Notes: generated by a model from the letters alone, not told the origin. A DNA stretch of 29,061 bases from Desulfobacterales bacterium (GCA_030668505.1 DAOUTV010000001.1:1-29061), one strand, 5' to 3'. Numbered from the stretch's first letter, positions 1,379 through 22,987 are shown. Translations and numbers: made by a program.

Positions 1379-1391
1379 CCAAAATCAAATA

Positions 1392-2120
1392 ATGAAGTCG
1401 TATGAACATCGTACTTATAGAAGTCTCATTTCGGACAAGAAGCTGGCAAGCTTCCGTGTTGTGGTAAATGAGACCGATCTTCTTGTTAGGGCCGACAGAC
1501 CCCTTGAAACCCAAACAAGAGATCTTATTTTGAGGCACAGAATCCCCCTTGAACGTTATATTGAACAACATCCTGAGTTTGTCCATAGGATGATCCCTTT
1601 GCCCCAGGACCGGCTAGCGTCACCCATTGTCAGAACAATGATTACGGCTGGCCAAAAGGCAGGTGTTGGTCCGATGGCAGCTGTTGCAGGGGCTATTGCT
1701 GAATATGTAGGCAGAGACCTTTTGGCACACAGCAAAGATGTGATCGTTGAAAATGGAGGAGATATTTTTATAAGAACCGGATTTCCTTTAGTTGCAGCTA
1801 TATTTGCCGGCAAATCTTCCCTGAGTAGCAAACTTGGGGTACGCATCGATTCACCGGGTCGCCCTGTAGCAGTTTGCACTTCTTCGGGAACTTTGGGGCA
1901 TTCCCTTAGCCTTGGAAGGGCCGACGCAGCAGTGGTGATCTCAGAGTCTGCGGCCCTTGGAGATGCAACTGCCACATCCATTGCAAATAAGGTGTCAGGC
2001 AGGCAAGACATTGAACCGGCTATAGAATTCGGGAAGAAGATAGAAGGGGTTCTGGGCATTGTTGTTGTCTTGGATAAAGAGATCGGCTTTGGTGGTGAGG
2101 TGGAACTGGTAAGGATTTAG
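1392..2120 (+). CDS. UPF0280 family protein (ApbE-like, COG2122)
   Basis: 242 aa with ETDL, GVGPMAAVAGAIAE, VIVENGGDIF, VCTSSGTLGHSLSLGRADAAVV and GDATAT motifs typical of the family. Confidence 0.9.
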   Translation: MKSYEHRTYRSLISDKKLASFRVVVNETDLLVRADRPLETQTRDLILRHRIPLERYIEQHPEFVHRMIPLPQDRLASPIVRTMITAGQKAGVGPMAAVAGAIAEYVGRDLLAHSKDVIVENGGDIFIRTGFPLVAAIFAGKSSLSSKLGVRIDSPGRPVAVCTSSGTLGHSLSLGRADAAVVISESAALGDATATSIANKVSGRQDIEPAIEFGKKIEGVLGIVVVLDKEIGFGGEVELVRI

Positions 2121-2160
2121 TTCCTTAGTTCTGAAATTCGTGTTTTTTCTGGCAGAAAAT

Positions 2161-2335
2161 AAATTCGAAATCCGAATATCGAAATCCGAAACAAATCTTC
2201 AATTTTCAAAATGCAAATGACCAAAACTGAATCCACAACCATAATCATGTCAAATAACTTGGATTACATGTTTTGAACATTCGAACATTTGTATTTTGGA
2301 TTTGTTTCGAATTTCGGATTTCGTGCTTCGTATTT
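2161..2335. repeat. Long imperfect palindrome built from CGAAAT(C/T) heptamer repeats
   Basis: Left arm 2161-2197 (AAATTCGAAATCCGAATATCGAAATCCGAAACAAATC) is inverted relative to right arm 2299-2335, with weaker inner pairing. Confidence 0.8.
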
Positions 2336-2435
2336 CCGCTTTATGCGGGTTAGGGATTTTGGCGTTTGACGCGATTAAGCATATACAAAAGGACTTGTTT
2401 TTTTTGCTAAGTCTGTTTATAAGTAAAGATACTTT

Positions 2436-2785
2436 GTAAGAGTTTAGCTTTTTGAAAAAGGCCGGATTTTGCTCACTCCTGTGAGCCATTTTGGGATTCA
2501 TGAATCGCTCCACTAAATCGCAAAAACTCGGGCTAACGCCCTCAAACAGTTTGCGATTTTGACGTTCCGTTCTTCATGAATCTTTTTCCAAAATTGCTCA
2601 ATATCGTTCATAAAACGAGTCTTTTTCATACACGTAAAGTGTTGATGGTTTCGTAAAAAGTCGAAAAACACCTCTTTCTGTCATTCCGGCGAAAGCCGGA
2701 ATCCAGTTTATTCAGCTAGTTACAAAGGCTCTGGACTCCGGTTTTCACCGGAGTGACGACTTTTTACGAGATTATCAAGTGTTAC
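2436..2785 (+). repeat. Family A repeat, long form, copy 2, with an internal palindromic insert and a nested family C element
   Basis: 2436-2486 is identical to 1294-1344 and 2619-2643 is identical to 1352-1376. About 125 bp extra palindromic segment at 2487-2611. The terminal GTGTTAC reappears at 2779-2785 after the nested element. Confidence 0.85.
2642..2778. mobile_element. Family C MITE-like element, copy 1
   Basis: 21-bp terminal inverted repeats TTGATGGTTTCGTAAAAAGTC / GACTTTTTACGAGATTATCAA (18/21 match). Core has paired hairpins GTCATTCCGGCGAAAGCCGGAATCCAG and CTGGACTCCGGTTTTCACCGGAGTGAC. No ORF. Confidence 0.8.
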
Positions 2786-2811
2786 GATACTTTTTTTCTG
2801 AGATGAAAACT

Positions 2812-3288
2812 ATGAAGACCGTATGGGCTCCTTGGCGCATGGAGTATATTTTGAGTGAAAAAGAAGATGGGTGTATATTCTGTTTTGCCTTATCGGGGCA
2901 GAGCGATCCCATACTGTACGAAGGTTCACTCTCCATGGTCATTATGAACAAGTATCCATATATTAATGGACATCTTTTAGTTGCCCCCAAAAGACACATA
3001 TCGTCTTTAAATGATATGACAAAGGAAGAGATGGCCGAGCTTTTAAAGACGATCAAAGACTCGATCGAAATACTAAAAAAAGTTATGAAGCCGGATGGGT
3101 TCAATGTAGGCCTGAATCTTGGCGAGGTGGCTGGGGCGGGTGTAGAACAGCACCTTCATTTTCATATTGTACCGCGATGGCATGGAGATACCAATGCTAT
3201 GACGGTGTTTGCTGAGGTGCGGGTGATACCTGAGCACCTTGAGGCAACGTATTATAACCTTAAACCTTATTTTGATGGGCTCAGCTGA
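2812..3288 (+). CDS. HIT family nucleotide hydrolase (Ap4A hydrolase/Fhit-like)
   Basis: WAPWRMEY, CIFC, NKYPYINGHLLVAP, FNVGLNLGEVAGAG and the histidine triad HLHFHIVPR. Start placed at MKTVWAPW (ATG 2812; 2803 also possible). Confidence 0.92.
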   Translation: MKTVWAPWRMEYILSEKEDGCIFCFALSGQSDPILYEGSLSMVIMNKYPYINGHLLVAPKRHISSLNDMTKEEMAELLKTIKDSIEILKKVMKPDGFNVGLNLGEVAGAGVEQHLHFHIVPRWHGDTNAMTVFAEVRVIPEHLEATYYNLKPYFDGLS

Positions 3289-3316
3289 GACCCTTGAAAT
3301 ACAAGGAGATTTTAAG

Positions 3317-3664
3317 ATGAAATCCATAAGGCCGGTGTTATGGTCCCTGATAGTCGTCTTCTTAGTAACCATCGTGGTTCAGAATCTTGGTCTGCTTACC
3401 CACAAGGAATCTTTAAGGCTGAACCTTCCGTTGATAAATGAATATCAGACCGAGCCTATTCACCTATCTATTTACTTCTTGGGGTTCTTTTTGATAGGTC
3501 TTCTCATTTCCTATGTCCATGGGCTGGTGGAACGTTTCAAAGCAAACAGGACTATAAAAAATCATCTCGAAACCATTCGTAAGTTAGAAGACGAGATAAA
3601 GACCTTCAAAGACTTACCTGCTCAGAAAATGAACACGCCTTCCAAAGAAACCTTGAATGCCTGA
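3317..3664 (+). CDS. LapA-like (lipopolysaccharide assembly protein A domain) small membrane protein
   Basis: AGGAG RBS at 3304 before ATG 3317. Pattern of N-terminal TM ending in VQN, second TM (FLGFFLIGLLI) and a coiled-coil tail. 115 aa. Confidence 0.65.
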   Translation: MKSIRPVLWSLIVVFLVTIVVQNLGLLTHKESLRLNLPLINEYQTEPIHLSIYFLGFFLIGLLISYVHGLVERFKANRTIKNHLETIRKLEDEIKTFKDLPAQKMNTPSKETLNA

Positions 3665-3847: not shown

Positions 3848-6469
3848 ATGGTTAAAGCCACCCCGATGGTTCAGCAATATCTATCGATTAAGCAGCAGTA
3901 CCCTGATGCTATTCTGTTTTACCGTATGGGCGATTTCTATGAGATGTTCTTTGAAGATGCAAAGGTAGCATCTCGAATCCTCGAAATTGCTCTAACTTCC
4001 CGAAACAAAAAGGACGTAGAACCGATTCCTATGTGCGGCGTGCCCCACCATGCCGCCCAGGGCTACATCGCGCGGCTGATTGAGCGAGGTTTCAAGGTGG
4101 CCATTTGTGAACAGGTGGAAGATCCGGCACTGGCAAAGGGACTTGTGAAGCGGGATGTTGTGAGAGTGATAACACCCGGAGTGGTCATTGACACAGAGAT
4201 TCTGGATGCAAGGTCCAACAACTTCCTCATGGCCTTATCTTACAGCCAAGGTCGCTACGGGATCGCCCATCTTGATATTTCCACAGGGACTTTCAGGATG
4301 ACCGAGTCAAGCGATTTCGACAAGATCGCAGACGAATGCAGACGTATTGAACCAAGCGAAGTCCTGCTTGCCGACTCGCATCGCGAGACTGTTGAAATCA
4401 AAATGCTGGTAGAAACGCTTGGAAAGGCATCTTTAAACTTCTTGAAGGATGAACATTTTGAACCGGAATTAGCTCGAACGCGGCTTCTGAGGCAGTTTAA
4501 GACCAAATCTCTGAAAGGATTTGGTTGTAATGAATGGCGAGCCGGCATTGCGGCGGCAGGCGCTCTTCTGCGCTACATAGATGGTAATGAAAAGGGAGAA
4601 CTCGTGCACATCACGGGTGTTGCATGCTACAGCATTTCCGACTTCATGGTCATAGATGAGGCCAGCAAGAGAAACTTAGAACTCTTTGAGACTATTTGGA
4701 CCGGTGCCAAACGTGGGTCCCTTATTGGTATAATTGATCAAACTGTAACAAACATGGGCGCTCGCATGCTTCGGGCCTGGCTTCAGTATCCGCTTTTAGA
4801 TCCTGAGCAAATCAAGCTCCGATTAGACGCCGTGGGAGAGGCCAAGGAGAAGCTTCCCGTGAGGCGTTCGGTAAGGAAGGCCTTACAAGAAGTACATGAT
4901 CTGCAGCGCTTAAATGCCAGGATTGCGCTTGATCGGTGCAATGCGCGAGATCTGTTAGCGTTGAAACACTCTATTCAAAAACTCCCCAAGATACGCACTT
5001 TGGTAGACGAGTTTGCAAACAAGTTTTTTGTTGAGATTACCTCAAAATGGGATGACCTTGACGATGTAAGGGGGTTGATCGAAAAAGCCATCACTGATGA
5101 GCCGCCTCTTACAACACACGAAGGTGGCATTATTAAGCCCGACTTTGATGAAGGGCTCGATGAACTGGTTGGGAGCAGTCGTGAAGGAAAGGATTGGATC
5201 TTACGTCTGGAGGCCAAGGAGCGGCGAGCTACAGGGATTAACTCATTGAAGGTGGGCTTCAACAAGGTTTTTGGTTACTATATTGAGGTTTCCAAGACCA
5301 ATATCAAATCAGTTCCTGCGCACTATGTACGCAAACAGACCCTGGTTAACGCAGAGCGCTACATTACCGAGGACCTTAAGGTCTATGAGTCTAAAGTGCT
5401 GGGGGCTGAAGAAAAACGAGCCCGATTGGAGTTTGAGCTGTTTTGTGTGGTAAGGAAAAGTGTGGCTCAAAATAATCGTCGCATTGCCGGGATGGCTGAC
5501 GCTGTGTCCAAGGTAGATGTGTTGCTGGCATTGGCTGAACTGGCTGATCAAAATGGTTATACAAAGCCGGTCGTTCATGCAGGTGACAGCCTCTTTTTGA
5601 AGGAGAGTTGTCATCCAGTTGTTGAAAAATTGGTATCATCTGAACGGTTTGTGCCAAACACCATTGAGATGGATCATACCTCCCGACAGGTGCTTATCAT
5701 TACTGGACCCAACATGGCCGGAAAATCAACAATCCTGCGTCAGGTAGCCCTGTTGGTATTGATGGCCCAGACGGGTTCTTTTGTTCCAGCAGAAGCAGCC
5801 TCCATTGGAATAGTCGATCGAATCTTCACCCGGGTTGGGGCGTTTGATAACCTTGCCGAAGGCCAAAGCACCTTCATGGTAGAAATGCAGGAGACCGCCA
5901 ACATCTTAAATAATGCCACTGAGAAGAGCTTGGTCATTCTGGATGAGATCGGCAGGGGGACTAGTACTTTTGACGGCCTGAGCATTGCCTGGGCTGTGGC
6001 AGAATATCTACACGACTGTAAAGGCCGTGGAATCAAAACCCTTTTTGCCACTCACTATCATGAGCTAACGGACCTGGCCCTTACCAAACCTAGAGTCAAG
6101 AATTACAATATTGCTGTCAAGGAATGGAATGAGGAGGTCATTTTCTTGAGGAAATTGGTTGAGGGAGGTACCAATCGAAGCTATGGTATCCAGGTGGCTC
6201 GTTTAGCGGGCGTTCCGGCACGGGTTTTGGAAAGGGCCAGAGAAATACTAAAGAACATAGAACGTGGTGAATTAGATGGTGAAGGAGAACCTGTGCTGGC
6301 ACGTTCTAAGAGACCACTTGAAAAAAACGCGAGTGTTCAGCTTCCCCTTTTTACGACTTCAGGTCAGATAGTGATTAATGCCTTGAAAAAGCTGGATATT
6401 TCAAATATGACACCCCTTGAAGCATTGAACCGTTTGAGCGACCTGAAAGAGTTAACGGATGATCAATAA
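3848..6469 (+). CDS. mutS: DNA mismatch repair protein MutS
   Basis: TPMVQQY, FYRMGDFYEMF, PMCGVP, Walker A GPNMAGKST, STFMVEM, DEIGRGTST, FATHYHEL and SYGIQVA. Confidence 0.99.
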   Translation: MVKATPMVQQYLSIKQQYPDAILFYRMGDFYEMFFEDAKVASRILEIALTSRNKKDVEPIPMCGVPHHAAQGYIARLIERGFKVAICEQVEDPALAKGLVKRDVVRVITPGVVIDTEILDARSNNFLMALSYSQGRYGIAHLDISTGTFRMTESSDFDKIADECRRIEPSEVLLADSHRETVEIKMLVETLGKASLNFLKDEHFEPELARTRLLRQFKTKSLKGFGCNEWRAGIAAAGALLRYIDGNEKGELVHITGVACYSISDFMVIDEASKRNLELFETIWTGAKRGSLIGIIDQTVTNMGARMLRAWLQYPLLDPEQIKLRLDAVGEAKEKLPVRRSVRKALQEVHDLQRLNARIALDRCNARDLLALKHSIQKLPKIRTLVDEFANKFFVEITSKWDDLDDVRGLIEKAITDEPPLTTHEGGIIKPDFDEGLDELVGSSREGKDWILRLEAKERRATGINSLKVGFNKVFGYYIEVSKTNIKSVPAHYVRKQTLVNAERYITEDLKVYESKVLGAEEKRARLEFELFCVVRKSVAQNNRRIAGMADAVSKVDVLLALAELADQNGYTKPVVHAGDSLFLKESCHPVVEKLVSSERFVPNTIEMDHTSRQVLIITGPNMAGKSTILRQVALLVLMAQTGSFVPAEAASIGIVDRIFTRVGAFDNLAEGQSTFMVEMQETANILNNATEKSLVILDEIGRGTSTFDGLSIAWAVAEYLHDCKGRGIKTLFATHYHELTDLALTKPRVKNYNIAVKEWNEEVIFLRKLVEGGTNRSYGIQVARLAGVPARVLERAREILKNIERGELDGEGEPVLARSKRPLEKNASVQLPLFTTSGQIVINALKKLDISNMTPLEALNRLSDLKELTDDQ

Positions 6470-6593: not shown

Positions 6594-8219
6594 ATGGCCC
6601 ATAGACATATATATTTTCTCGTCTTGCTTATTCTGTTTGTTTTAAACCCGCATGTTGCTACAGGATATCAAACCGAAAGTGACTATAAACACGCTATGTC
6701 GTGTTTTGAAAAGCTCATGAAAGACCCTAAAAAACAGAAGTTCCGACATCATTGGATTGCATGCATAAAGGAATTTGGTGCTGTTTACGCATCCCAACCG
6801 AACGGGCGAAAGGCAGATGACGCCCTTTTCATGAAGGCAAGGTTGTATGCCGAGTTGTATGGGTATTCCGGCAAAAAGAAAGACAAGCAACGAGCCCTCG
6901 AATATTACAAAGGCTTGCTGAAGCGTTTTCCCAAGAGCCGATATACGTCAAAAGCTAAAAGGGCAATTACCAGGCTGGGCGGTGGCTACCCAAATGCGTC
7001 AAAATCTATCACTGCAGTGCCTGTCAAAAAGCCCGCCTTTAATAAGAAGAGATCCAATGCTAAACCAAGATCGCTTGCTGAGGTAAAGGAAATACGTTTT
7101 TGGTCCAGCACTAGCTATACTCGTGTGGTCATTGATGTAGAATCTGAGGTTTCCTATACTCACCGTCTGTTGAAAAAAGACCCCACCATTGCAAAGCCTA
7201 TGCGTCTTTGTATTGATCTGAATCATGCGCGTATAGGGCAGGGGCTAAAGCCGGTAGTACCGATCGCAGATGATCTCCTCAGCAGTGTCCGGGCAGCTCA
7301 AAATAGTCCGAATACGGTCCGGCTCGTTTTAGATATTAAATCGATTGGTGATTTTAAGATATTCTCTCTACACAACCCTTTTCGTATTGTAGTCGATGTA
7401 AGTAGTGTGTCCTTGATGTCCGCATCAAAGACTACATCAAAAAAACGATTTAATCACGAACTGGAAAAGCCGGATGGTAAGCTACCCAAGGGTGCCTTGG
7501 CAAAACAACTAGCCCTTGGGGTAAAACGGATCGTCATTGATCCCGGACATGGGGGGAAAGATCCGGGTGCAATTGGATATTTAAAGGGTATAAGAGAAAA
7601 GAACGTGACCCTGGAGATTTCACGGAGGCTGGCTAAAAAGATTCGTCTGAGGCTTGGATGCGAGGTCATACTGACCCGAAACTCAGACACCTTTCTTTCA
7701 CTTGAAGAACGCACTGCCATCGCAAATACTAAGAATGCCGACCTTTTCATTTCCGTTCATACCAATGCGAACAGGGCTATGGCTTGTCGTGGTATTGAGA
7801 CTTATTTCTTGAATTTGGCCACAGATGAAGACGCAATTTTAGTAGCTGCACGTGAAAATGCCACGTCAGCCAAGAATATTAGCGACCTTCAGACAATCTT
7901 TAGTGATCTTATGAAAAACGCCATGATAGATGAATCAAGTCGCCTGGCGGGTTATGTTCAAGAATCCATGATTAGGGAATTAAAACCTAAATACCAATGG
8001 ATTAAAGATAAAGGCGTGAAAAAGGCACCCTTCTATGTACTGCTAGGTGCTGAGATGCCGTCAATATTGATAGAGACTGCTTTTATAACTAACCCCAGAG
8101 AGTGCCGCAGATTAAACAGCGCCAGTTACCAGGAAGACTTAGCCAATGCCATTGTCACGGGCCTCCAGCGCTATATCAAGGATATCCATCCGACTGCACA
8201 CATAAAGGCTCACCTTTGA
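6594..8219 (+). CDS. N-acetylmuramoyl-L-alanine amidase (signal/TM, TPR-like, AMIN, Amidase_3)
   Basis: IDPGHGGKDPGA, EKNVTL, LEERTAIAN, FISVHTNA and ILIETAFITN. AMIN-like segments (TRVVIDV, VRLVLD, NPFRIVVDV). Start chosen at ATG 6594, just before the hydrophobic signal; 6519 is also possible. Confidence 0.93.
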   Translation: MAHRHIYFLVLLILFVLNPHVATGYQTESDYKHAMSCFEKLMKDPKKQKFRHHWIACIKEFGAVYASQPNGRKADDALFMKARLYAELYGYSGKKKDKQRALEYYKGLLKRFPKSRYTSKAKRAITRLGGGYPNASKSITAVPVKKPAFNKKRSNAKPRSLAEVKEIRFWSSTSYTRVVIDVESEVSYTHRLLKKDPTIAKPMRLCIDLNHARIGQGLKPVVPIADDLLSSVRAAQNSPNTVRLVLDIKSIGDFKIFSLHNPFRIVVDVSSVSLMSASKTTSKKRFNHELEKPDGKLPKGALAKQLALGVKRIVIDPGHGGKDPGAIGYLKGIREKNVTLEISRRLAKKIRLRLGCEVILTRNSDTFLSLEERTAIANTKNADLFISVHTNANRAMACRGIETYFLNLATDEDAILVAARENATSAKNISDLQTIFSDLMKNAMIDESSRLAGYVQESMIRELKPKYQWIKDKGVKKAPFYVLLGAEMPSILIETAFITNPRECRRLNSASYQEDLANAIVTGLQRYIKDIHPTAHIKAHL

Positions 8220-8296
8220 CGACTCCATTCTGTTGATTTTTTCAAAAGTTCTCAACTAAACTGTACTTTTATCACCTATTGAAAAGGCGCTTTCTT

Positions 8297-8316
8297 CCAC
8301 GGGCTCACGCCCGTGG
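8297..8316. repeat. REP-like GC hairpin / possible bidirectional terminator between convergent genes
   Basis: CCACGGGC-TCAC-GCCCGTGG, a perfect 8-bp stem with outer GCGCT/AGCGC pairing, between the amidase and fxsA stop codons. Confidence 0.55.
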
Positions 8317-8343
8317 TCTTCAGCGCAAATTTTGATATAATTT

Positions 8344-8736
8344 TCAGAAGATCATTATGTTGGTTTTGTTTTCTGAGATCCATTTATCAAGCTTCTTGCG
8401 CAACCACTGCTTAAACAAAGACCTGGTGTTTGGTATCAGTATTGCGAGACCTGCCAAATCGGTAATGAATCCAGGGGTGAGCAGTACGATGCCGGCGACG
8501 AAGATCAACAGGGCATCCAACATTTCCTCTGCTGGAAGTTCCCCACGGTTCATGCTTTCTCTGACTCTCATCATAGTTTTAATTCCTTGAAGCTTGGCCA
8601 GATAAGCGCCCAAAAGGCCTGTCACAATCACGACAAGGATGGTGTTAAAAGCCCCCAGGTAATATCCAATCTTTATCAAGAGATAGAGTTCAGAAAAGGG
8701 TATGAGCGTAAAAGCCAGAAACAGTTTTAGTAACAT
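8344..8736 (-). CDS. fxsA: FxsA family membrane protein
   Basis: 130 aa: P..ELYLLIKIG, TGLLGAYLAKLQG, AGIVLLTPGFITD. Confidence 0.92.
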   Translation of the reverse strand: MLLKLFLAFTLIPFSELYLLIKIGYYLGAFNTILVVIVTGLLGAYLAKLQGIKTMMRVRESMNRGELPAEEMLDALLIFVAGIVLLTPGFITDLAGLAILIPNTRSLFKQWLRKKLDKWISENKTNIMIF

Positions 8737-13484: not shown

Positions 13485-13781
13485 ATGTCTGCGAAAAATT
13501 TTAGTGTGAAACAAGATGAGCAGGGCATTTACCACTTTGAGGGTGAACTATCTATTCATGCGCTCGATCACCTCAAAGATTTTTTGGACAAGTCTCTCAA
13601 AGGTGGACAGGAGATTGCTATTTCGCTCGCCAAGGTTAGATTTATTGACACCGCGGCCCTTCAATTGCTCATTGCCTTTAAGAAACGGTTCGAACCAGAA
13701 GTTAAGTTGAAAATTTCTGAAGTCTCTTCTGAGGTAGAGAACATTTTATCTCTTTGCGGTCTCAAAACCATATTGGTGTAA
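13485..13781 (+). CDS. STAS domain protein (chemosensory-cluster associated)
   Basis: 98 aa: FEGELSI, ISLAKVRFIDTAALQLL. Lies directly upstream of cheY-cheA. Confidence 0.85.
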   Translation: MSAKNFSVKQDEQGIYHFEGELSIHALDHLKDFLDKSLKGGQEIAISLAKVRFIDTAALQLLIAFKKRFEPEVKLKISEVSSEVENILSLCGLKTILV

Positions 13782-13794
13782 GAGGTGCGCCTAG

Positions 13795-14178
13795 ATGGAA
13801 AAGAATATTTTAATTGTAGAAGATTCGCCTACCATGAGGTCGTCTGTTTCTTTTTGCTTACGTAACGCAGGTTATAGAGTGGCAGAAGCTATAGACGGTA
13901 AAGATGCCTTGAAAAAACTGCAATCCATGAATGACAAAAGTGAACCTCTGTCCCTGATTATCACCGACATTAATATGCCGCAGATGGATGGCATTACTTT
14001 TATTTCAGAAGTAAAAGAGACCGATTTTAAATTTGTTCCCATATTGGTCCTGACCACCGAGAGCGAAGAATCCGTGATAAAAAAAGGACGAGACGCAGGG
14101 GCTTCGGGCTGGCTGTTGAAGCCCTTTCAACCCGAACAGCTTCTGTGGGCTGTCAAAAAGGTCATTTGGACGAAATGA
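13795..14178 (+). CDS. cheY: Single-domain response regulator CheY
   Basis: ILIVEDS, IITDINMP, LVLTTES and WLLKPF; conserved D/T/K residues; ATGA overlap with cheA. Confidence 0.88.
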   Translation: MEKNILIVEDSPTMRSSVSFCLRNAGYRVAEAIDGKDALKKLQSMNDKSEPLSLIITDINMPQMDGITFISEVKETDFKFVPILVLTTESEESVIKKGRDAGASGWLLKPFQPEQLLWAVKKVIWTK

Positions 14179-16334
14179 TCGTAGATGACGAAACATTACA
14201 GATTTTTTTCTCCGAAACAGAAGAACTGCTTAAACTGGCAGAAGAAAGCCTTCTGTCTCTCGAGTCCTCACCCCAATCTGTATCAGATATAGAACAACTC
14301 TTCAGGTCGGTGCATACTCTAAAGAGTGGTGCGGGCATGGTGGGATATAATCGTATTTCAGATTATGCCCACCTTGTCGAAAGCTTGTTGGAACGTCTTA
14401 GAAGTGGCAAGTTGGCCGTTACCAATAACCTTATCACCTTCCTTCTGGACTCAATCGATTTTATGCGGTTTATGGTTGACAGGGTATCTAAGAGTGAAGA
14501 CGAAGTCGATCCGGAAGTTCTCGATAAGCGAAAAGATCAGGTAAGACGTTATTTGGGTGTAGATGGGATAAGCTCAAGTGAAAAGGAACCTGATCCGGTC
14601 AAAGCAGCTACCCAAGAACCCGCAAAAGAATTCAGTTTCTACAAGATCCATCTCAAGTTTCGAAGAGAGCTTTTCTATTCCGGCCAGGACCCGCTCCTGA
14701 TCCTTCTATCCCTATCTGAATTGGGGGAGTTTGTCCAGGTGGTACCCGATCTTTCTGAATTTCCGGATTTTGAAAACTTTTCCATGTATGATCTCTATAT
14801 CTCCTGGCAGATCATTATCAAGACCGAACAGTCTTATGAAGATATCGAAGATGTCTTCATGTTTGTTATAGATGACAACGACATTTGGATTGAAGATATT
14901 ACCAACCAATACAGGGAGGGTATTGATATAGACCTGGCTGAAAAGAAGCTCGGTCAAGTGCTTGTGGAAAAAGGCAAAATCACGGAGGAAGTATTAACCG
15001 ATGCTCTGAAGAAACAAAAGAGGCTTGGTGATATCTTAGTAGAGGACGGGAGGATTCATACTGAAGACCTTGAGAAGGCAGTGGCCGTACAGGAGGAGCG
15101 TCGCACGGTTTATCGCAAGACAACAATCCGTGTTGATGTGGAAAAGATTGATAGCCTTGTAAATCTGGGTGAAGAGATGGGGATTGGACTTGCTAAGGTG
15201 AAGACACTCTTTGAAAAATATACCGGCCCCGGACAAATGGAAATATCGGAAGAGGTCGAAAATCTCTTTAAGGTGAATCAAGATTTCCAGGAGCGAGTCC
15301 AAAGGGTTCGAATGTTTTCTTTGGAAGGAACATTCCATAGATTCCAACGCATGGCAAGGGATCTTGCTCTTCAGCAGAACAAGCAGATCAAAGTGATCTC
15401 GGCCGGACTTGATACCGAGTTAGACAAAGAGGTTATTGAATATAGTACTGACCCCCTAAAACATCTGGTCCGGAATTGTATTGATCACGGCATAGAGTCT
15501 CCGAAAGAAAGGGAGGCGAAGGGGAAACCGCCTACGGGGATCATCAAATTCGAGGCGTATCAGAGAGGTGGGAAAATCTTTATTGAAATTTGTGATGACG
15601 GAAAGGGCATCGATTTGAAAGGCATTCATCGGAAGGCTCTTGAAAGGGGTTGGATTGAACCTGAGCAAGCCCTGACTGAAGAAGCCTTGCTTGACTTTAT
15701 ATTTAAGCCGGGATTATCCACCAGCTCAAAAGTTTCGGAGATCTCCGGCAGAGGAGTTGGGATGGATGTGGTGAGGACACAGCTTAATCAAATCGGAGGC
15801 ACTATAGACATTCATACGGAAAAGGACAAAGGAACCACCTTTATCTTATGTCTGCCCCTGATATCTGCGTTTATGGAGGCCTTGCATGTGTTGGTGCAGG
15901 ACACTTCATTCTTAGTGCCATTGCAGACTGTTGTTGGAACGGAAAAATTCGACAAGAGACTTGTTAAAGGTATTGGAGCCCAGGAAAGGCTGTACCGATT
16001 TCGTGGTGATTATATACCGCTCGCAGATATGACGAAGATCTTACATATTGGTATGCCTCCTACAAACGGCAACACCACAGCAGTGGTCATCGTGGATACA
16101 GGAAAAAAAGTCTTTGGTATGCCTGTGGACGAGGTTTTGGATCCACAACAGATTATTGTCAAGACTCTTGAGACAAACTATCGCAGCGTCAAGGGGATAG
16201 CCGGCGCCACCATTTTGGGGGATGGCTCGGTCTCACTAGTATTGGATCTTTTGGGAGTGGAGGAAATTTTTTTCAGAAATTCCTTTAAAGGAGACGCGAC
16301 CCATGAAAGTGAAGAAAAGGTTGAACAGGGTTAA
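14175..16334 (+). CDS. cheA: Chemotaxis histidine kinase CheA with an internal MshEN-like tandem motif
   Basis: Hpt FRSVHTLKSGAG, IRVDVEKID, HLVRNCIDHGIE, DDGKGID, GRGVGMDVV and a C-terminal CheW-like domain (AGATILGDGSV). Start at ATG 14175 (719 aa). Confidence 0.96.
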   Translation: MIVDDETLQIFFSETEELLKLAEESLLSLESSPQSVSDIEQLFRSVHTLKSGAGMVGYNRISDYAHLVESLLERLRSGKLAVTNNLITFLLDSIDFMRFMVDRVSKSEDEVDPEVLDKRKDQVRRYLGVDGISSSEKEPDPVKAATQEPAKEFSFYKIHLKFRRELFYSGQDPLLILLSLSELGEFVQVVPDLSEFPDFENFSMYDLYISWQIIIKTEQSYEDIEDVFMFVIDDNDIWIEDITNQYREGIDIDLAEKKLGQVLVEKGKITEEVLTDALKKQKRLGDILVEDGRIHTEDLEKAVAVQEERRTVYRKTTIRVDVEKIDSLVNLGEEMGIGLAKVKTLFEKYTGPGQMEISEEVENLFKVNQDFQERVQRVRMFSLEGTFHRFQRMARDLALQQNKQIKVISAGLDTELDKEVIEYSTDPLKHLVRNCIDHGIESPKEREAKGKPPTGIIKFEAYQRGGKIFIEICDDGKGIDLKGIHRKALERGWIEPEQALTEEALLDFIFKPGLSTSSKVSEISGRGVGMDVVRTQLNQIGGTIDIHTEKDKGTTFILCLPLISAFMEALHVLVQDTSFLVPLQTVVGTEKFDKRLVKGIGAQERLYRFRGDYIPLADMTKILHIGMPPTNGNTTAVVIVDTGKKVFGMPVDEVLDPQQIIVKTLETNYRSVKGIAGATILGDGSVSLVLDLLGVEEIFFRNSFKGDATHESEEKVEQG

Positions 16335-16782
16335 TGGCTTGGTTTGCCTGATGTTTTTCTTTTTTTTATGCGCCACTGTTTGGGCGCAGAATCCCAAACC
16401 AACCTATGTGGGTTCTGATGCCTGTCAAGATTGCCATGAAACCGAATATAAAAACTTTAAGGCCTATGCCAAGAAGGCATACTCTTACAAGAGTATCAGG
16501 GAAATGAAAAAGGGCCTCACTGAGACAGAGTTTTGCAAGTGTTTCGAGTGTCACACCACTGGATATGGAAAACCGAGTGGGTTTCGCTCCGAACATGAGA
16601 CGCCCCACCTCATGAACGCAGGTTGCGAGGTCTGTCACGGCCCGGGGAGCCTTCATGTTGAAACCGGGGAACCAAAAGAGATAAAGGGGAGCCTGACGGC
16701 CAAGGACTGCGATGCCTGCCACAGCTCAGAACGTGTTAAGGCTTTTGATTACAAGCCACTGATCCACGGGGGAGCCCATTAG
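16303..16782 (+). CDS. Periplasmic tetraheme cytochrome c (c554-like family)
   Basis: AAGGAG RBS, signal peptide ending ATVWA-Q, four CxxCH motifs (CQDCH, CFECH, CEVCH, CDACH) and C-terminal GGAH. Confidence 0.9.
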   Translation: MKVKKRLNRVNGLVCLMFFFFLCATVWAQNPKPTYVGSDACQDCHETEYKNFKAYAKKAYSYKSIREMKKGLTETEFCKCFECHTTGYGKPSGFRSEHETPHLMNAGCEVCHGPGSLHVETGEPKEIKGSLTAKDCDACHSSERVKAFDYKPLIHGGAH

Positions 16783-16869
16783 TACTGTGTATATTTTGTT
16801 CATTATGTTTGTCGGGTTAACTCAACAAACCCAATAAACGAAATGAACTCAACTTGTGGAGGTAAGGTC

Positions 16870-19182
16870 ATGATAAAATGGACACATCAACTGCAAAGAA
16901 GAACCGGGCTTCGCGTCAAGATTCTTATGGCAACGATCTTGGTGGTCGGTGGATTCACCGGGGTATTTCTTTATCAAACAGTTTCTTTTCATACTCAGAG
17001 CGCCTTGAACCAGGTAGCGGAATCGAGCCAAAGCCTGCTTAAGAACACGTACAGTGCAATCAAATATCCCATGTCAGTTGGAGACAGCATTACAGTTGAG
17101 AAGCAATTAATGGACATAAAAAACCATATGGAAGGCACTGAGGTCTACATATCAGACTTCCACCAGATTGTTCAATACGCCTCAGAAGAAGACCGCATTC
17201 ATACCGGCATCCAGGACTATCTGTTGGGAAAAGAGACCAGAGAAGCGCTTACTGCTGCATTAAGGACTGGATTGTCGCCCCAAAAATCCATTACGGAAAT
17301 CAGAGACGGGGATCCTTTCTTGGTCACAATAATGCCACTTTTAAATGAAAGCTCTTGTCATCACTGCCATGGAGCAAGTCAAAAAGTGCTGGGCACCATG
17401 GTTGTCAAACACCCCGTAAAAGAGGTATACTCGTCTCTGGCCTCAGCCAGAAATCGCTTAATAGGGTTTTCTATTATCGAGATCATTGGGATCATATTAG
17501 TTATCAACTTTCTATTTAATCGACTGGTAACTAGACGCATTAAAAGCTTGGCGGCAAAGACGGGGTTAGTCTCAGCCGGAGATATCACAGTAGAGGTTCA
17601 TGATGATTCTCGGGACTCCATTGGAAGATTAACTCGGAATTTTAACCAGATGATTAAAAACATACGTGATCGGATGGAATATGCCAACAGCCTAAAACTG
17701 GGCATTTCAGAACCTTTTTTTATGGTCGATTCCGATATGAAGCTGACCTTTATGAATGATGCCGCTGCCAAATTTGCGGGTGTTCGCCCTGGAGATGTTC
17801 TGGGAAAAAATACCTGCATACAAGTATTCAAGAGTGATATGTGCGATACGGCGTGCCCCATAAAAAAGGCCATGGAAACCGGTGTAGCCACTGAGGGTTT
17901 CAGGGTCACTACAAAAAACGCTGAGGGGAAAGAAGTTCCCGCTATGGCGAGTGGCGCTGCTCTGAGGGATTCTGCGGGCAAGATTTTGGGCGGGTTTGAA
18001 ATGCTACGCGATATTTCTAAAGAAGTTGAAGCAGAATCCGGGTTGCGAGATTCTTACCACAGGGAAGAAGAAGCAAAGAAGAACTTACAGCATCGGGTAC
18101 AAAGCCTTTCAGACATCTTGAGTAGGGTTGCCGGGGGAGACTTAACAGTAAGGGCCGAAACGAGTGGTGAAAATGACTCGATGGACCGGTTGGTTCAGAG
18201 AACAAATGAAACGTTAGATCACATGAAAGAACTTATTGGACAGACAAAAAAATCCGCCCTAACAGTGGTCATGGGAGTCCGGCATATCTCTGAGGGAAAC
18301 CAGGAACTTTCACAGCGTACCCAGCAACAAGCAGCCACTGTGGAAGAGACGAGCGCAACTGTTGAAGAACTGGTATCCAATATTAACCAAAACGCTACTA
18401 ATACCCAGCGTGCCGACAATCTATCAAAAGAGGCTGTGGCTGTAGCTGTAGAGGGTGGACAGACAGTCGAAAGGACGGCTCAGGCCATGAACGACATGTC
18501 GGAAGGGAGTCGTAAGATAGTTGAGATGATGGATTTGATCAATGAAATAACCTTTCAGACCAACCTTCTTTCGATCAATGCTGCCGTGGAAGCGGCACGG
18601 GCCGGAGAACAGGGGCGGGGATTTAATGTTGTTGCCAACGAAATACGCAGTCTTGCAAAGAGAAGCTCAGAGGCGTCCAAGGATATTCAAAGCCTTGTCC
18701 GTGAGATCATGGATCAGGTTAGTACGGGTAAGGAATGGGTCGGCCAGCTGGAGAACGGATTTAAGAAGATCGTAGAAACCATTAAACAGGTCTCCGATGC
18801 TCTCAGTGAGGTTTCCTTAGCCACCCAGGAAAGTTCAAGAGGAATTGAGCAAATTGGCCAGGGAGTTAATGAGTTGAGTGATGTGATCTCACATAATGCA
18901 TCATTAGTGGATGGGCTGGCAGGTGCCACTGAACAACTCAACGAAAAAGCGGGTTTACTACAAGATATAACGGAAAAATTTACATTGGGCGATCAAGATA
19001 ATATTGAGGTTGAAGAGTTCAGTTTCAATAAGAGTATCCAAGATCAAAAGAAAGACAGGCGTGGAACCCAACCCCCTGCTACGAGGTCATTACGTGAGGA
19101 GTTGGCTACTCAGCACCCCATTGAAGAAAAACCGGAAGACTTGTTGGAAAAAGAGTTGGATGGGGGATTCGAGGAATTCTAA
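16870..19182 (+). CDS. Methyl-accepting chemotaxis protein: TM, periplasmic heme-c sensor, TM, HAMP, PAS, HAMP, MA
   Basis: GGAGGT RBS; two TM helices; CHHCH between them (17356-17370); HAMP; PAS; signalling hairpin FQTNLLSINAAVEAARAGEQGRGF; C-terminal GFEEF pentapeptide. Confidence 0.95.
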   Translation: MIKWTHQLQRRTGLRVKILMATILVVGGFTGVFLYQTVSFHTQSALNQVAESSQSLLKNTYSAIKYPMSVGDSITVEKQLMDIKNHMEGTEVYISDFHQIVQYASEEDRIHTGIQDYLLGKETREALTAALRTGLSPQKSITEIRDGDPFLVTIMPLLNESSCHHCHGASQKVLGTMVVKHPVKEVYSSLASARNRLIGFSIIEIIGIILVINFLFNRLVTRRIKSLAAKTGLVSAGDITVEVHDDSRDSIGRLTRNFNQMIKNIRDRMEYANSLKLGISEPFFMVDSDMKLTFMNDAAAKFAGVRPGDVLGKNTCIQVFKSDMCDTACPIKKAMETGVATEGFRVTTKNAEGKEVPAMASGAALRDSAGKILGGFEMLRDISKEVEAESGLRDSYHREEEAKKNLQHRVQSLSDILSRVAGGDLTVRAETSGENDSMDRLVQRTNETLDHMKELIGQTKKSALTVVMGVRHISEGNQELSQRTQQQAATVEETSATVEELVSNINQNATNTQRADNLSKEAVAVAVEGGQTVERTAQAMNDMSEGSRKIVEMMDLINEITFQTNLLSINAAVEAARAGEQGRGFNVVANEIRSLAKRSSEASKDIQSLVREIMDQVSTGKEWVGQLENGFKKIVETIKQVSDALSEVSLATQESSRGIEQIGQGVNELSDVISHNASLVDGLAGATEQLNEKAGLLQDITEKFTLGDQDNIEVEEFSFNKSIQDQKKDRRGTQPPATRSLREELATQHPIEEKPEDLLEKELDGGFEEF

Positions 19183-19634
19183 TGTCCGAAATTCAGCAAT
19201 ATGTAATCTTTTCACTAAATGAACAAATATATGGCATTGAAGTCCCCAAGATAAAAGAGGTCGTCAGCTATCGAAAGATCACGCCTCTTCCCAATATGGT
19301 TGGGTTTATCAAGGGGATTATTAATCTGAGGGGGGTTGTTCTGCCGGTATTTGATCTGAGAGAAAAGTTCAATCTTTCAGAAACCACTTACACCCCTTTT
19401 CACATAATCATTGTGATGGAGATATCGGGAAGAGCTATGGGGGTTATCGTGGACGAGATTTCGGACGTGGTGGAACTCTCACCCGATGAAGTTCAAGCCC
19501 CTTCCAATCTTCCTCCCGATGTACAAGCCGAATATATCAAAGGTATTGGGAAAAAAGAACATGAACTTATCGTCCTGTTGGATGTTGATCGACTCCTGAG
19601 TTCCAAAGAACTCGAGATCCTGGATGCTACCTGA
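19182..19634 (+). CDS. cheW: Coupling protein CheW
   Basis: QYVIFSL, YGIEV..IKEV, LPNMVGFIKGIINLRGVVLPVFDLR, GVIVDEISDV. TAATG overlap with the MCP. Confidence 0.95.
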   Translation: MSEIQQYVIFSLNEQIYGIEVPKIKEVVSYRKITPLPNMVGFIKGIINLRGVVLPVFDLREKFNLSETTYTPFHIIIVMEISGRAMGVIVDEISDVVELSPDEVQAPSNLPPDVQAEYIKGIGKKEHELIVLLDVDRLLSSKELEILDAT

Positions 19635-19639
19635 TATGT

Positions 19640-19759
19640 ATGAGCTGTCCTCTTATGGTCCCCTGTCTGAATGAAACAGATTTTGAGGGATACGGGGCTT
19701 TGTCCACACTGCAAATTACTACAGTACTCCAGCGCTTCATCCCGGAAGGGGAAGGATAG
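19640..19759 (+). pseudogene. Possible remnant of a deleted cheR
   Basis: 130-bp gap exactly where cheR usually lies. LNETDFE followed, after a one-base frame change, by IRGFVH weakly resembles the first helix of CheR. Speculative. Confidence 0.2.
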
Positions 19760-19764
19760 GGGCT

Positions 19765-20349
19765 TTGTATCAATTCTACAGCAACAGGTTGAAGAAGACA
19801 GTCATTATGCTCATGCCGGGTGAGTATTTTGCCACTCAAAAGGATCAGGTGCTTTACACCGTTGTGGGCTCATGTATCGCCACTTGTATCTATGATAGGG
19901 AACAAAAAATAGCCGGGATGAACCATTTTTTACTTCCGGGAATGGTACGTCCTGATGATATGCTGACATCTGATCTAGGCCGATACGGCATGTTTGCCAT
20001 GGAGCTGTTGATTGGCGAACTCATTAAGTTGGGAGCCCGGAGAGGGAAACTTGAGGCTAAGTTATTTGGGGGGGGCAATGTATTGAAATTTAGAAGCTGT
20101 GACGGCGATGTGACCAGGTCCAATATTCGTTTTGCAAAAAAATTCTTAGAGCTGGAAGGAATCCCTGCAGTGAGCCAAGATCTTGGAGGGAACGGCGGAA
20201 GAAAGATCTTGTTTTTTAGTGATAGTGATAAAGTCCTCTTGAAACGATTTGATATTAGGAAAGAGCGATCATTCATTAAATCCGAAGAGACTTATAAGAA
20301 AACCATTTTTCAAGAACCACATATAAAATCACCACTAAGGCTGTTTTAA
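19765..20349 (+). CDS. cheD: Chemoreceptor glutamine deamidase CheD
   Basis: LMPGEYF, TVVGSCIA (catalytic Cys), AGMNHFLLP, RYG..AMELLI, EAKLFGGG. TTG start, exact start uncertain. Confidence 0.93.
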   Translation: MYQFYSNRLKKTVIMLMPGEYFATQKDQVLYTVVGSCIATCIYDREQKIAGMNHFLLPGMVRPDDMLTSDLGRYGMFAMELLIGELIKLGARRGKLEAKLFGGGNVLKFRSCDGDVTRSNIRFAKKFLELEGIPAVSQDLGGNGGRKILFFSDSDKVLLKRFDIRKERSFIKSEETYKKTIFQEPHIKSPLRLF

Positions 20350-20352
20350 TAT

Positions 20353-21387
20353 ATGAAGCCTATCCGCGTGCTTATTGTTGACGATTCACCCATAGTGCAA
20401 TCAGTGCTGACGAGTCTCTTGTCTGATGAACCTGATTTTGAGGTATTGGGAACCGCTTCTGATCCCTTTGAGGCAAACGATTTGATTGTGAAAAAAAGGC
20501 CTGATGTGATCACACTGGACATTGAGATGCCTCGAATGGATGGAATCACCTTTCTTAAACGACTTATGAGCTTCCGTCCCGTCCCGGTGATCATGATCAG
20601 TTCCTATACCCGCGAAAACAGCATTTGCACCTTCGAGGCCCTGAATGCCGGGGCCGTTGATTTTGTTGCCAAACCCACAGGGGATGTCAGGAGCGGTCTT
20701 CGGAAAATGAAACATGAGATTACCACCAAATTAAGAGCTGCAAAACGGGCCAAAATAAAACCCTCCGGACTATTTGGCAAATCAAGAAGACTAGTATCGA
20801 TAGGGAAAAACAGGGCATCGAACAAGATCATCGTCATCGGGGCCTCAACAGGCGGAACTCAGGCCATACAAACACTGCTGGAGTGCATGCCTTCAAATGT
20901 AAATGGAATTGTCATTGTCCAGCACATGCCGGTTCGCTATACAAATCCCTTTGCCCAGAGGTTGAACGGATTGTTTCTAATGAACATTAAGGAGGCCGAG
21001 GACGGTGATCGCATTGACAAAGGAAATGTACTGGTGGCGCCTGGTGGGCGACACTTGCAGGTAGCAAAGGACCCTATGGGATATTATGTACAGCTGCAAG
21101 ACGGTCGGCCGGTCAAACACCAGCGGCCTTCAGTTGATATCATGTTCCATTCGGTTGCAAAGACTGCTGCCTCCGACGGCATTGGCATACTCCTGACAGG
21201 GATGGGAGATGACGGAGCCGATGGCTTGCTGGCTATGAAGCAGGCTGGGGCTTTTACCGTTGCACAGGATGAAGCCAGTTCGGTAATTTTTGGTATGCCA
21301 GGAGCGGCTATAGAACGTGGTGCAGCTATAGTGGTGGCTGAGCTGGATGATATAGCAAGTGTTGTTCTTTCGTCGCTTAAGACGTGA
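20353..21387 (+). CDS. cheB: Chemotaxis methylesterase CheB (REC + esterase)
   Basis: REC (LDIEMP, VAKP), GASTGG, VQHMP, RPSVD, LTGMGDDGA and IFGMP; Ser/His/Asp triad present. Confidence 0.97.
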   Translation: MKPIRVLIVDDSPIVQSVLTSLLSDEPDFEVLGTASDPFEANDLIVKKRPDVITLDIEMPRMDGITFLKRLMSFRPVPVIMISSYTRENSICTFEALNAGAVDFVAKPTGDVRSGLRKMKHEITTKLRAAKRAKIKPSGLFGKSRRLVSIGKNRASNKIIVIGASTGGTQAIQTLLECMPSNVNGIVIVQHMPVRYTNPFAQRLNGLFLMNIKEAEDGDRIDKGNVLVAPGGRHLQVAKDPMGYYVQLQDGRPVKHQRPSVDIMFHSVAKTAASDGIGILLTGMGDDGADGLLAMKQAGAFTVAQDEASSVIFGMPGAAIERGAAIVVAELDDIASVVLSSLKT

Positions 21388-21409
21388 CAGTTAGGATAGG
21401 AGTCGGGAT

Positions 21410-22321
21410 ATGGCCAAGATACTTCTTATAGACGATAGTCGTCTGATTGCCCATGCAGCCAAGAAAACTTTGACCAGGGTGGGACACGAGATTATTTTAG
21501 CTGAGGATGGCGTCGCCGGCCTGGAGAAAGCAAAGTCTGAACAGCCTGACTTGATCCTGTTGGATTTAATCATGCCCGGTATGGACGGATACCAGGTGTG
21601 TCAAAAATTAATAAAGGAGGAAAGCTCTAAGGAGACACCTGTCATTATGCTTACGTCAAAGTCTGAGCCTGCCGACAAGGTAAAGGCTCTGAAAATAGGG
21701 GCTTTGGACTATGTGACCAAGCCTTTTGACGAAGCCGAGTTGGTAGCTCGTGTGAATATACACTTACGACTCAAAGAGCTCTATGAAACGGTTCAGGAGA
21801 AAAATCGGCAGCTCCAGGACCTGGCCAACAAAGACGGACTGACGGATTTGTTCAATCATCGATATTTCCACGAGCAGTTGTCAAAGGACTTTTTACGCGC
21901 CAGACGGTATCATGAGTCTTTGACGTGCGTTTTGTTGGACATAGACCACTTTAAGAAGTTTAACGATACACACGGTCACCTGACAGGGGACGTCGTATTG
22001 AAAGCACTTGGATGCATCATCAAAGATTCGATCAGGGACAGCGATTTTGCGGCCAGATACGGGGGTGAAGAGTTTGCGCTCGTTTTGTATCATACCGATG
22101 GGCCGGGGGGATTTGATGTGGCTGAACGGCTCCGGCGGAGGGTGGATGATAATGAAGTACATGATAAAGGCAACGTGCTGCATGTCAGCATCAGTGCGGG
22201 AGTTGCTACGTTTCCACACAAGCTGATCCACAATTCCAAGGAGCTGATTGAATGTACTGATAAGGCACTTTATCAGGCCAAGAACAACGGCCGAAACCGA
22301 GTAGAGAAATTTGACGGATAA
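21410..22321 (+). CDS. REC-GGDEF diguanylate cyclase (WspR/PleD-like)
   Basis: REC (LLDLIMP, MLTS, VTKP), DGLTDLFN, DIDHFKKFNDTHGH, I-site RDSD five residues before an intact GGEEF, KNNGRN. Confidence 0.94.
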   Translation: MAKILLIDDSRLIAHAAKKTLTRVGHEIILAEDGVAGLEKAKSEQPDLILLDLIMPGMDGYQVCQKLIKEESSKETPVIMLTSKSEPADKVKALKIGALDYVTKPFDEAELVARVNIHLRLKELYETVQEKNRQLQDLANKDGLTDLFNHRYFHEQLSKDFLRARRYHESLTCVLLDIDHFKKFNDTHGHLTGDVVLKALGCIIKDSIRDSDFAARYGGEEFALVLYHTDGPGGFDVAERLRRRVDDNEVHDKGNVLHVSISAGVATFPHKLIHNSKELIECTDKALYQAKNNGRNRVEKFDG

Positions 22322-22360: not shown

Positions 22361-22987
22361 ATGAAAGATAGCAATGCGCCAACTGAAGAAGGGATCCAAA
22401 GGATCAACCGGCTCCAGCGCGAATTTTTCAGTGGACTCATCCACGTTTTTGACCCGCCTTTACCGGAAGGTGTGCCGGAGCGTCTGAAAAAGATTGTGGC
22501 ATCCGGCAAGATAGCTAAAGGAGATGTTGTACTGGATGTTGGTACGGGCACAGGGATATTGGTCCCCCTGATTCAAGCGTATGAGCCTGAGGCCATCTTT
22601 GCCTGTGATCTTTCGGAGGTTATGCTGGCTCATTTACACGAACAGTACCCGTATGCAAAGACCATCGCGAAAGATGTACGGGATCTCACCCTGCCTGAAG
22701 ACAGTATTGATGTGGTCTTCATGAATGCCTGTTATCCTAACATTGTGGATAAAGACAGAGCCTTTGCGAATACTAGTCGGATGATGAAACCAGATGGGCG
22801 CATAGTGATCAGCCATCCTTTGGGAAAATCATTTGTTGAATTATTAAAGGAAAAATCGCCCTTTCCTCTGGATGACTTTCCCGAGAAACCTGATGCTAAA
22901 GTTTTACTTAAGCATTATGGTTTTGACATGACCGACTTTGTAGACGAGGAAAAGCTCTATATTTTGGTAGCCACCAAGCAGCACTAG
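22361..22987 (+). CDS. Class I SAM-dependent methyltransferase
   Basis: VLDVGTGTG motif I, ACDLSEVML, MMKPDGRIVISH. Confidence 0.88.
   Translation: MKDSNAPTEEGIQRINRLQREFFSGLIHVFDPPLPEGVPERLKKIVASGKIAKGDVVLDVGTGTGILVPLIQAYEPEAIFACDLSEVMLAHLHEQYPYAKTIAKDVRDLTLPEDSIDVVFMNACYPNIVDKDRAFANTSRMMKPDGRIVISHPLGKSFVELLKEKSPFPLDDFPEKPDAKVLLKHYGFDMTDFVDEEKLYILVATKQH

Follow-up and report, generated by a model that had tools for sequence, protein, structure and literature searches.

The first periplasmic heme-c sensors to be recognized include GSU0582, GSU0935 and DcrA, and redox state and gases are the candidate stimuli. DcrA of Desulfovibrio vulgaris is a methyl-accepting chemotaxis protein (MCP) that carries a periplasmic c-type heme at a CXXCH motif and is thought to sense redox state or oxygen; we know of no partner cytochrome for it. 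Here, we analyze a 29,061-nucleotide stretch of DNA from a Desulfobacterales bacterium (GCA_030668505.1, DAOUTV010000001.1:1-29061; hereafter the window, with positions counted from its first letter and all features on the + strand) in which a gene for a tetraheme cytochrome c (16303-16782) is followed by the gene for a heme-c MCP (16870-19182). The original prediction for this locus, made from the DNA alone, was that the cytochrome is a dedicated partner of the receptor that relays the redox state of the cytochrome pool to it, in the manner of a periplasmic binding protein for electrons. Comparison of homologous loci supports the first part of this proposal well: a sensor of this type comes directly after the cytochrome in 77 of 78 testable loci and for every one of 14 orthologues from a sample of genomes, the partners include both MCPs and histidine kinases, and a prediction of the complex gave a weak pass. 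We consider it probable that the cytochrome is a signalling-dedicated periplasmic co-sensor of the downstream heme-c sCache receptor.

The systems closest to this locus resemble it in some respects and depart from it in others. GSU0582 and GSU0935 (MCPs of Geobacter sulfurreducens; 3B47 and 3B42; PF21563) have the same sensor domain, with one CXXCH on a short helix between strands. In contrast, the sensor encoded in the window is only approximately 20% identical to theirs, has an invariant His within the motif (CxHCH) and has a tetraheme cytochrome gene upstream. DcrA is similar by description only, in that it is a chemoreceptor of a sulfate reducer and its periplasmic part contains a CXXCH. 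The cytochrome, for its part, shares PF13435, four hemes and three alignable heme motifs (the first three) with cytochrome c554 of Nitrosomonas europaea (CycA; 1BVB, 1FT5) and with the c554-like scaffold of OcwA (6QVM). Its mature form is substantially shorter than c554 (approximately 131 aa versus 211 aa), its C-terminal part differs and ends in an invariant GGAH, and the neighbours in the window and in the 80 loci surveyed below are che or kinase genes rather than hao or nitrogen-cycle genes. Because of this shorter length, different C-terminus and different gene context, the cytochrome is classified by sequence as a c554-like family member and not as a c554 orthologue.

Operon-encoded extracytoplasmic accessory proteins are known for several sensors: YycH and YycI for WalK, TorT for TorS, LuxP for LuxQ and maltose-binding protein for Tar. 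In these systems, as proposed here, a separate periplasmic protein encoded beside the sensor supplies or shapes its input, and the adjacency and conservation that characterize sensors dependent on accessory proteins are also seen for the pair in the window. The sCache domain of WalK is among the best fold matches to the receptor's sensor domain (TM score 0.64-0.72), and a WalK-YycH model is among the matches as well. The difference is that the accessory protein in the window is a multiheme cytochrome whose "ligand" would be electrons; a Pfam search with the cytochrome showed no homology to the known accessory proteins, returning only cytochrome families. H-NOX and NosP are stand-alone cytoplasmic heme sensors with a single heme b that sense gases and have genes adjacent to those of kinases, cyclases or MCPs. 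They too are separate heme proteins that are encoded beside a signalling protein and control it, but the cytochrome of the window is periplasmic, is predicted to hold four covalent c hemes and has a partner receptor with a heme of its own; Pfam assigned it to c-type cytochrome families only, with no H-NOX or NosP homology. To our knowledge, multiheme cytochromes have no part in any of these accessory-protein or H-NOX-type systems. For heme-c sensors, a multiheme partner was not found in a review of Geobacter chemotaxis, in work on Geobacter chemotaxis genomics, in two 2026 preprints on sCache_heme domains or in broader full-text searches of papers outside subscription journals, and such a partner is apparently undescribed. 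If the proposal is correct, multiheme cytochromes would join the accessory "binding proteins" of bacterial receptors.

Conservation of the cytochrome-sensor pair

The best 80 cytochrome loci were taken from a collection holding one genome per species and were searched with the window's own proteins. In 77 of the 78 loci where this could be tested, the N-terminal part of the product encoded directly 3' of the cytochrome is homologous to the sensor domain. Of the remaining three of the 80 loci, two stop at a contig end and one (L023) has CheA downstream. The two genes are often separated by -1 to 60 nt, and the paired sensor in each of the 77 loci contains exactly one CXXCH, of the form CxHCH, at approximately residue 155-165. 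The outputs attached to this sensor fall into two classes and the pairing spans several phyla. In Desulfobacterota the typical output is HAMP-MCPsignal, with or without a PAS or CZB domain, while in Nitrospirota and some Desulfobacterota it is a HAMP-(PAS)-HisKA-HATPase kinase, many of these having two receiver domains (REC-REC). Both types of partner that the original prediction had named, MCPs and histidine kinases, were therefore recovered, and the conservation beside heme-c sensors on which that prediction depended was observed. A well-defined subfamily of heme sensors is thus accompanied by a four-heme cytochrome of its own, both where the output is of the chemotaxis type and where it is a two-component kinase.

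The prediction had also emphasized the position of the cytochrome between cheA and the MCP gene. This holds in the window, but as a general arrangement it does not: cheA-cytochrome-MCP is limited to one clade of approximately 10 loci. As so few loci share this placement, the conserved unit is the cytochrome plus the sensor and not the che context. At least one carrier of the pair is in culture, Desulfonema limicola (CP061799, locus L129, 6001-7989), and there the two genes stand alone, with che genes absent from their vicinity. Family members that depart from the usual order still adjoin signalling genes, encoding CheA, a Cache kinase or a REC-PAS kinase.

These observations bear on the simplest alternative, that the protein is an ordinary respiratory carrier whose gene happens to lie in the receptor's operon, the two proteins having no direct functional coupling. 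Tetraheme modules of the c554 type are common (1117 clusters at E ≤ 1e-10) and the organism is from cytochrome-rich lineages of cold-seep sulfate reducers, so a carrier of this kind would not be out of place. Against this, a sensor follows the cytochrome in nearly every locus, in several phyla and with two output classes; every orthologue in the genome sample described below is paired, and paralogous cytochromes go with paralogous sensors; inspection of the neighbouring genes identified no respiratory genes adjoining the pair; and the controls of the complex prediction scored 0.00. We regard a purely respiratory role as very unlikely.

A less biased sample, made up of 121 genomes from the same phylum with a completeness of 90% or more, was searched for the sensor family and for the cytochrome. 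All 14 cytochromes of the type found in the window (group A) are followed by a sensor gene; 11 of these sensors were detected by PF21563 and three by a profile built from paired sensors. A second tetraheme clade (group B) comprises proteins of approximately 150 aa that are approximately 35% identical to the first, retain the core of hemes 1-3 and have a different C-terminus. Group B cytochromes pair with their own distinct clade of sensors in 9 of 11 cases, such that the two partners have diversified together. Two group B loci occur in the window's own genome. On contig C168 (L121 1898-4400), a group B cytochrome gene is followed by that of a heme-sensor histidine kinase (CYKCH), with a sigma-54 activator upstream. 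On contig C17 (L120 2517-8033), the order is group B cytochrome, REC-PAS kinase and heme-sensor kinase (CHKCH), with a second cytochrome downstream.

Further variants were noted. In genome G072, a cytochrome gene is followed by a 285-aa open reading frame (ORF) resembling a sensor domain with no output (L144 1379-2236). A paired group A cytochrome in genome G082 (L159, contig C21, ~22536-22925) contains an in-frame TGA, which could reflect loss of gene function, misassembly or codon recoding. On contig C1 of genome G003 (L128 1926-6256), an MCP-like heme-sensor gene (CHLCH) is followed by a 458-aa gene and two tandem genes for triheme cytochromes of approximately 195 aa, distant relatives of the family; sensor and cytochrome genes may thus be combined in this order as well.

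In the sample, 20 of the 75 sensor matches, only about a quarter, are accompanied by such a cytochrome, so the partnership defines a subfamily of sensors and does not apply to heme-c sensors as a whole. The best PF21563 match (147 bits, CTSCH) and the next best (CQSCH), whose motifs are as in the Geobacter proteins, are from genomes that lack a cytochrome of this family. The idea of a partner for heme-c sensors is thus upheld for the subfamily with His or Lys inside the CXXCH, but it does not extend to the GSU0582/GSU0935 type that the original prediction had cited. The same count weighs on a second alternative, in which the receptor heme itself senses a ligand and the cytochrome is a maintenance or reset reductase that keeps or restores this heme in the ferrous, ligand-competent state. 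The pairing evidence applies equally to such a role, and NO binding by sCache_heme domains has been reported in two preprints (10.64898/2026.02.01.703092; 10.64898/2026.05.25.727664), but the approximately 55 of 75 heme-c sCache sensors without a cytochrome would need the same service. The sequences do not separate this role from an electron relay, and we judge it to be rather improbable.

The residue at the third position of the CXXCH differs between paired and unpaired sensors. All 64 paired sensors aligned from the survey and all 14 group A pairs of the sample have His there, and all nine group B pairs have Lys. Of the 55 sensors that lack a cytochrome partner, one has His and seven have Lys, and the rest have mostly Ser, Gly, Ala or Thr. 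Two sensors from a single genus that are close to group A and have no cytochrome (L172 and L173) have Asn at this position. These counts suggest that the third residue tracks the presence of the cytochrome; because related genomes are not independent, the signature is suggestive and does not amount to statistical proof.

A tree of the cytochromes separates a clade linked to MCPs from one linked to kinases (support 99/97), and the output label changes only twice on this tree compared to approximately 19 times when labels are shuffled. Pairwise distances between cytochromes and between sensors are correlated (r = 0.74, permutation maximum 0.10), which is to be expected of genes inherited together and is not counted as separate support for co-evolution. 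In four loci (L018, L035, L043 and L063; cytochrome at 8001-8480 or 5443-5919), the che operon is the same and the sensor is 63-73% identical to that of the window, while the cytochrome is just 50-59% identical. This difference suggests replacement or fast evolution of the cytochrome in these loci, and the specificity for the partner would therefore be limited.

Predicted heme sites of the cytochrome and the receptor

The cytochrome gene encodes a 159-aa protein, identified from its ORF and by Pfam. The N-terminus (MKVKKRLNRVNGLVCLMFFFFLCATVWA, followed by Q) has a basic stretch, approximately 18 hydrophobic residues and a VWA sequence preceding the Q; judged by eye, this is a Sec signal peptide (16303-16386) with predicted cleavage after VWA. 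The four heme motifs are CQDCH (heme 1, C41-H45; 16423-16437), CFECH (heme 2; 16540-16554), CEVCH (heme 3; 16624-16638) and CDACH (heme 4; 16708-16722). PF13435 (Cytochrome_C554) matches residues 40-113 at 64.3 bits, well above the cut-off of 20.8. The closest relatives of solved structure identified with phmmer are the c554-like part of the nonaheme cytochrome OcwA (6QVM, 8.7e-8) and cytochrome c554 itself (1BVB, 6.3e-7). Residues 35-132 align to residues 5-116 of c554 (1BVB) and cover hemes 1-3, with the heme 4 motif outside the aligned stretch. At least 1495 proteins of approximately 160 aa match the cytochrome (clustered at 90%), and 25 clusters formed at 50% match it at E ≤ 1e-30, which delimits a separate and tightly conserved clade.

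Some homologues (P0217, P0219, P0221 and P0224) have N-terminal extensions in which no additional Pfam domain was found; from their sequences, these look like miscalled starts that are followed by the signal peptide. Longer ORFs that carry the tetraheme module are fused to other redox domains and none to a sensor. For example, two proteins of approximately 620 aa (L132 491-2356 and L133 1644-3506) join an AhpC/TSA (peroxiredoxin-like) domain to two c554-like heme modules, with seven CXXCH motifs in total. A role in electron delivery would fit with this use of the same module.

The extra Cys that the original prediction had drawn attention to, in the sequence FCKCFECH before heme 2, is present as Cys78 (16534-16536) but is not conserved. 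A Cys occupies this column in only 3/89 and 2/64 homologues in two alignments, Arg or Lys being usual. Cys78 was rejected as a functional feature on these grounds and is, by comparison with its homologues, a lineage-specific substitution with no sign of function.

Beyond the His residues of the four CXXCH motifs, the alignments of 89 and 64 homologues contain two essentially invariant His residues, an invariant Lys58 and a nearly invariant Tyr150. The first of the two, His118 (16654-16656; 89/89 and 63/64 homologues), and the second, the invariant C-terminal His159 of the GGAH end (16777-16779), are candidate distal ligands, and four hemes must therefore share two conserved candidates. Met68 was rejected as a distal ligand, as Met is found at this position in just 27 of 64 diverse members. 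Heme 2 has an invariant CxxCHTTGYG and lines up with the second CXXCH of c554, whose heme 2 is the open active-site heme (OcwA paper, 10.1101/641308). Based on the sharing of two conserved distal His residues and on this alignment, at least one heme of the cytochrome is likely to be open or unusually ligated, and the protein could bind a small ligand itself rather than merely relay electrons.

This leads to the main alternative to an electron relay, in which the cytochrome is itself the ligand sensor: an open, five-coordinate heme would bind NO, O2, CO or sulfide and the signal would pass to the receptor by contact or through a ligand-triggered change in redox state. The scarcity of conserved distal ligands and the c554-like heme 2 are what this model would predict, and the conserved pairing fits it as well as it fits a relay. 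However, the receptor's own invariant heme site would then be redundant, four hemes exceed the needs of a ligand sensor, and the fusion of the module to redox enzymes elsewhere points to electron delivery. Structural modelling contributes little on either side: an AlphaFold2 (AF2) model of the cytochrome made without hemes is poor, with a predicted local distance difference test score (pLDDT) of 63.3 and a predicted template modelling score (pTM) of 0.38, which is too poor to read heme ligation, and a Foldseek search of this model against the PDB returned no match at E ≤ 0.001. On balance, we consider it unlikely that the cytochrome is the ligand sensor.

The MCP downstream is a 770-aa protein (16870-19182) composed of a first transmembrane segment (TM1), a periplasmic sensor, a second transmembrane segment (TM2), HAMP, PAS and an MCP signalling domain. 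The longest ORF begins at 16843, but the true start is probably the ATG at 16870, because a GGAGG site precedes it and nearly all of 95 MCP orthologues are 770 aa in length. The architecture is identical in all 95 and none contains a cytochrome domain. TM1 is predicted at 16915-16974 from a hydrophobic stretch identified by eye, and TM2 is predicted from sequence at 17458-17526; these two segments are followed by HAMP (53.7 bits) and MCPsignal (152.8 bits). The region between them (16975-17457) matches PF21563, the GSU0935-type sensor, at 32.2 bits (cut-off 27), and its single predicted heme-binding motif, a CHHCH at 17356-17370 with the third-position His at 17362-17364, bears out the one periplasmic CHHCH of the original prediction.

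The only sequence matches of the sensor domain in the PDB are 3B42 and 3B47, with an alignment that spans the CXXCH. An AF2 model of the domain (pLDDT 92.9) places the CHHCH on a short helix (126-132) flanked by strands (113-123 and 138-147), and the top Foldseek matches to this model are 3B42 (2.8e-7), the WalK sCache domain and 3B47. Because of the PF21563 match and the agreement of sequence and fold with 3B42 and 3B47, the receptor is assigned to sCache_heme, a large, recently defined family (10.64898/2026.02.01.703092). Covalent binding of heme c by the sensor is predicted from a CXXCH that is invariant in 64/64 homologues and from the cytochrome c assembly genes that are present in the genome.

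The predicted complex and the co-sensor proposal

A complex of the sensor domain and the mature cytochrome was predicted using a 64-row alignment for each protein, with the four hemes included, in three runs and with three controls. The median score of the three runs was 0.59 compared to 0.00 for the best control, and was graded as weak support. The runs agree in at least 90% of contacts and the pLDDT of the partner is at least 86. In calibration, 58 of 80 solved complexes but also 2 of 110 mismatched pairs scored high enough to pass, and scores of 0.60 or lower were confined to 7 of the 80 solved complexes and to the two passing mismatches; the present job differs from the calibration in that it used its own alignments and carried a small molecule. 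The pairing of the cytochrome with the periplasmic domain of the MCP, for which the original prediction had proposed such a test, therefore passed only weakly. As the prior from gene order was already high, the prediction adds modestly to the case for binding and is not proof of it, and we suggest that the two proteins may bind each other.

In the model that we favour, the cytochrome would be exported by Sec, loaded with four c-type hemes and docked on the periplasmic domain of the receptor, where it would trade electrons with the single receptor heme. The four-heme chain would equilibrate with periplasmic electron donors or acceptors, such that the sensor heme, in its redox, spin or ligation state, would track the redox poise of the reductants and oxidants of the chain. 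The resulting change in the sensor heme would be transmitted to CheA via TM2, HAMP and PAS. Input modules built from these two genes would serve MCPs in Desulfobacterota and, in Nitrospirota, hybrid histidine kinases. We infer both the relay of electrons from the cytochrome pool to the receptor and the identity of the signal. The model is testable and describes a form of energy or redox taxis in which anaerobes could monitor how reduced or oxidized their periplasmic electron carriers are, with CxHCH as its signature.

Several points weigh against this model. Linkage by itself would produce conserved adjacency and correlated trees, and observations from related genomes are not independent. The argument for binding draws on one weak computational pass. 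The cytochromes of L018, L043 and L063 lie on a long branch in the kinase-linked clade despite a che operon of the window type. Only two distal His residues are conserved for four hemes, and in the alignment heme 2 falls on the open heme of c554. The Geobacter-type heme-c sCache sensors function with no cytochrome of this kind, and thus the sensor fold does not need a partner. Finally, a 738-aa protein with a group A-type sensor (L138 of genome G072, 1383-3599; CRHCH) has no cytochrome within 1.4 kb, although a cytochrome encoded elsewhere in that genome may be shared with it in trans.

The motif signature and the apparent shortage of distal ligands can also be combined in a more specific way, with the pair acting as one five-heme device. 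The invariant His of the sensor's CxHCH (Lys in the paralogues) would complete the coordination of an open cytochrome heme as its sixth ligand, and reduction or ligand binding would toggle this bond to give the signal. We view this as speculative and improbable. If true, such an intermolecular-ligand switch would be a new input mechanism common to chemoreceptors and histidine kinases, in both Desulfobacterota and Nitrospirota.

Surrounding operon and source genome

The pair is part of a chemosensory operon (13485-22321) in which Pfam identifies, in order, STAS, CheY, CheA, the cytochrome, the MCP, CheW, CheD, CheB and a REC-GGDEF protein. The cheA gene (14145-16334) encodes Hpt, dimerisation, HATPase and CheW-like domains, and its last 32 nt lie inside the cytochrome gene. 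The length of this overlap follows from the coordinates of the cheA stop codon (TAA, 16332-16334) and the cytochrome ATG (16303). A ribosome-binding site, AAGGAG (16288-16293), was read from the sequence within cheA, 9 nt 5' of this ATG. The 32-bp overlap and the separate ribosome-binding site had both been predicted and are confirmed by these positions.

Contigs from near relatives (90-99% likeness) that are labelled as metatranscriptomic cover parts of the locus, although such libraries can hold DNA and the contigs do not prove the presence of transcripts. Specifically, contig X19 covers 16253-16487, which includes the junction of cheA and the cytochrome gene, as well as 17223-17372, and contig X20 covers 16496-16659; both bear the metatranscriptome label and may be DNA.

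The source genome is a metagenome-assembled genome of 1.98 Mb with a completeness of 82%. Near-identical DNA is contained in cold-seep and marine-sediment metagenomes of several studies. The carriers of the pair include cold-seep sulfate reducers, whose lifestyle is dependent on extracellular and interspecies electron transfer.

The operon also varies in its distal part. The spacing between cheW and cheD is approximately 130 nt in the window (19634-19765) and in its closest relative (L007), while the same operon in more distant relatives has a spacing of approximately 860-880 nt (L008 7270-8129; L018 11262-12140), which leaves room for cheR. As a gap of this size is found only in the more distant relatives, cheR seems to have been lost recently in the lineage of the window.

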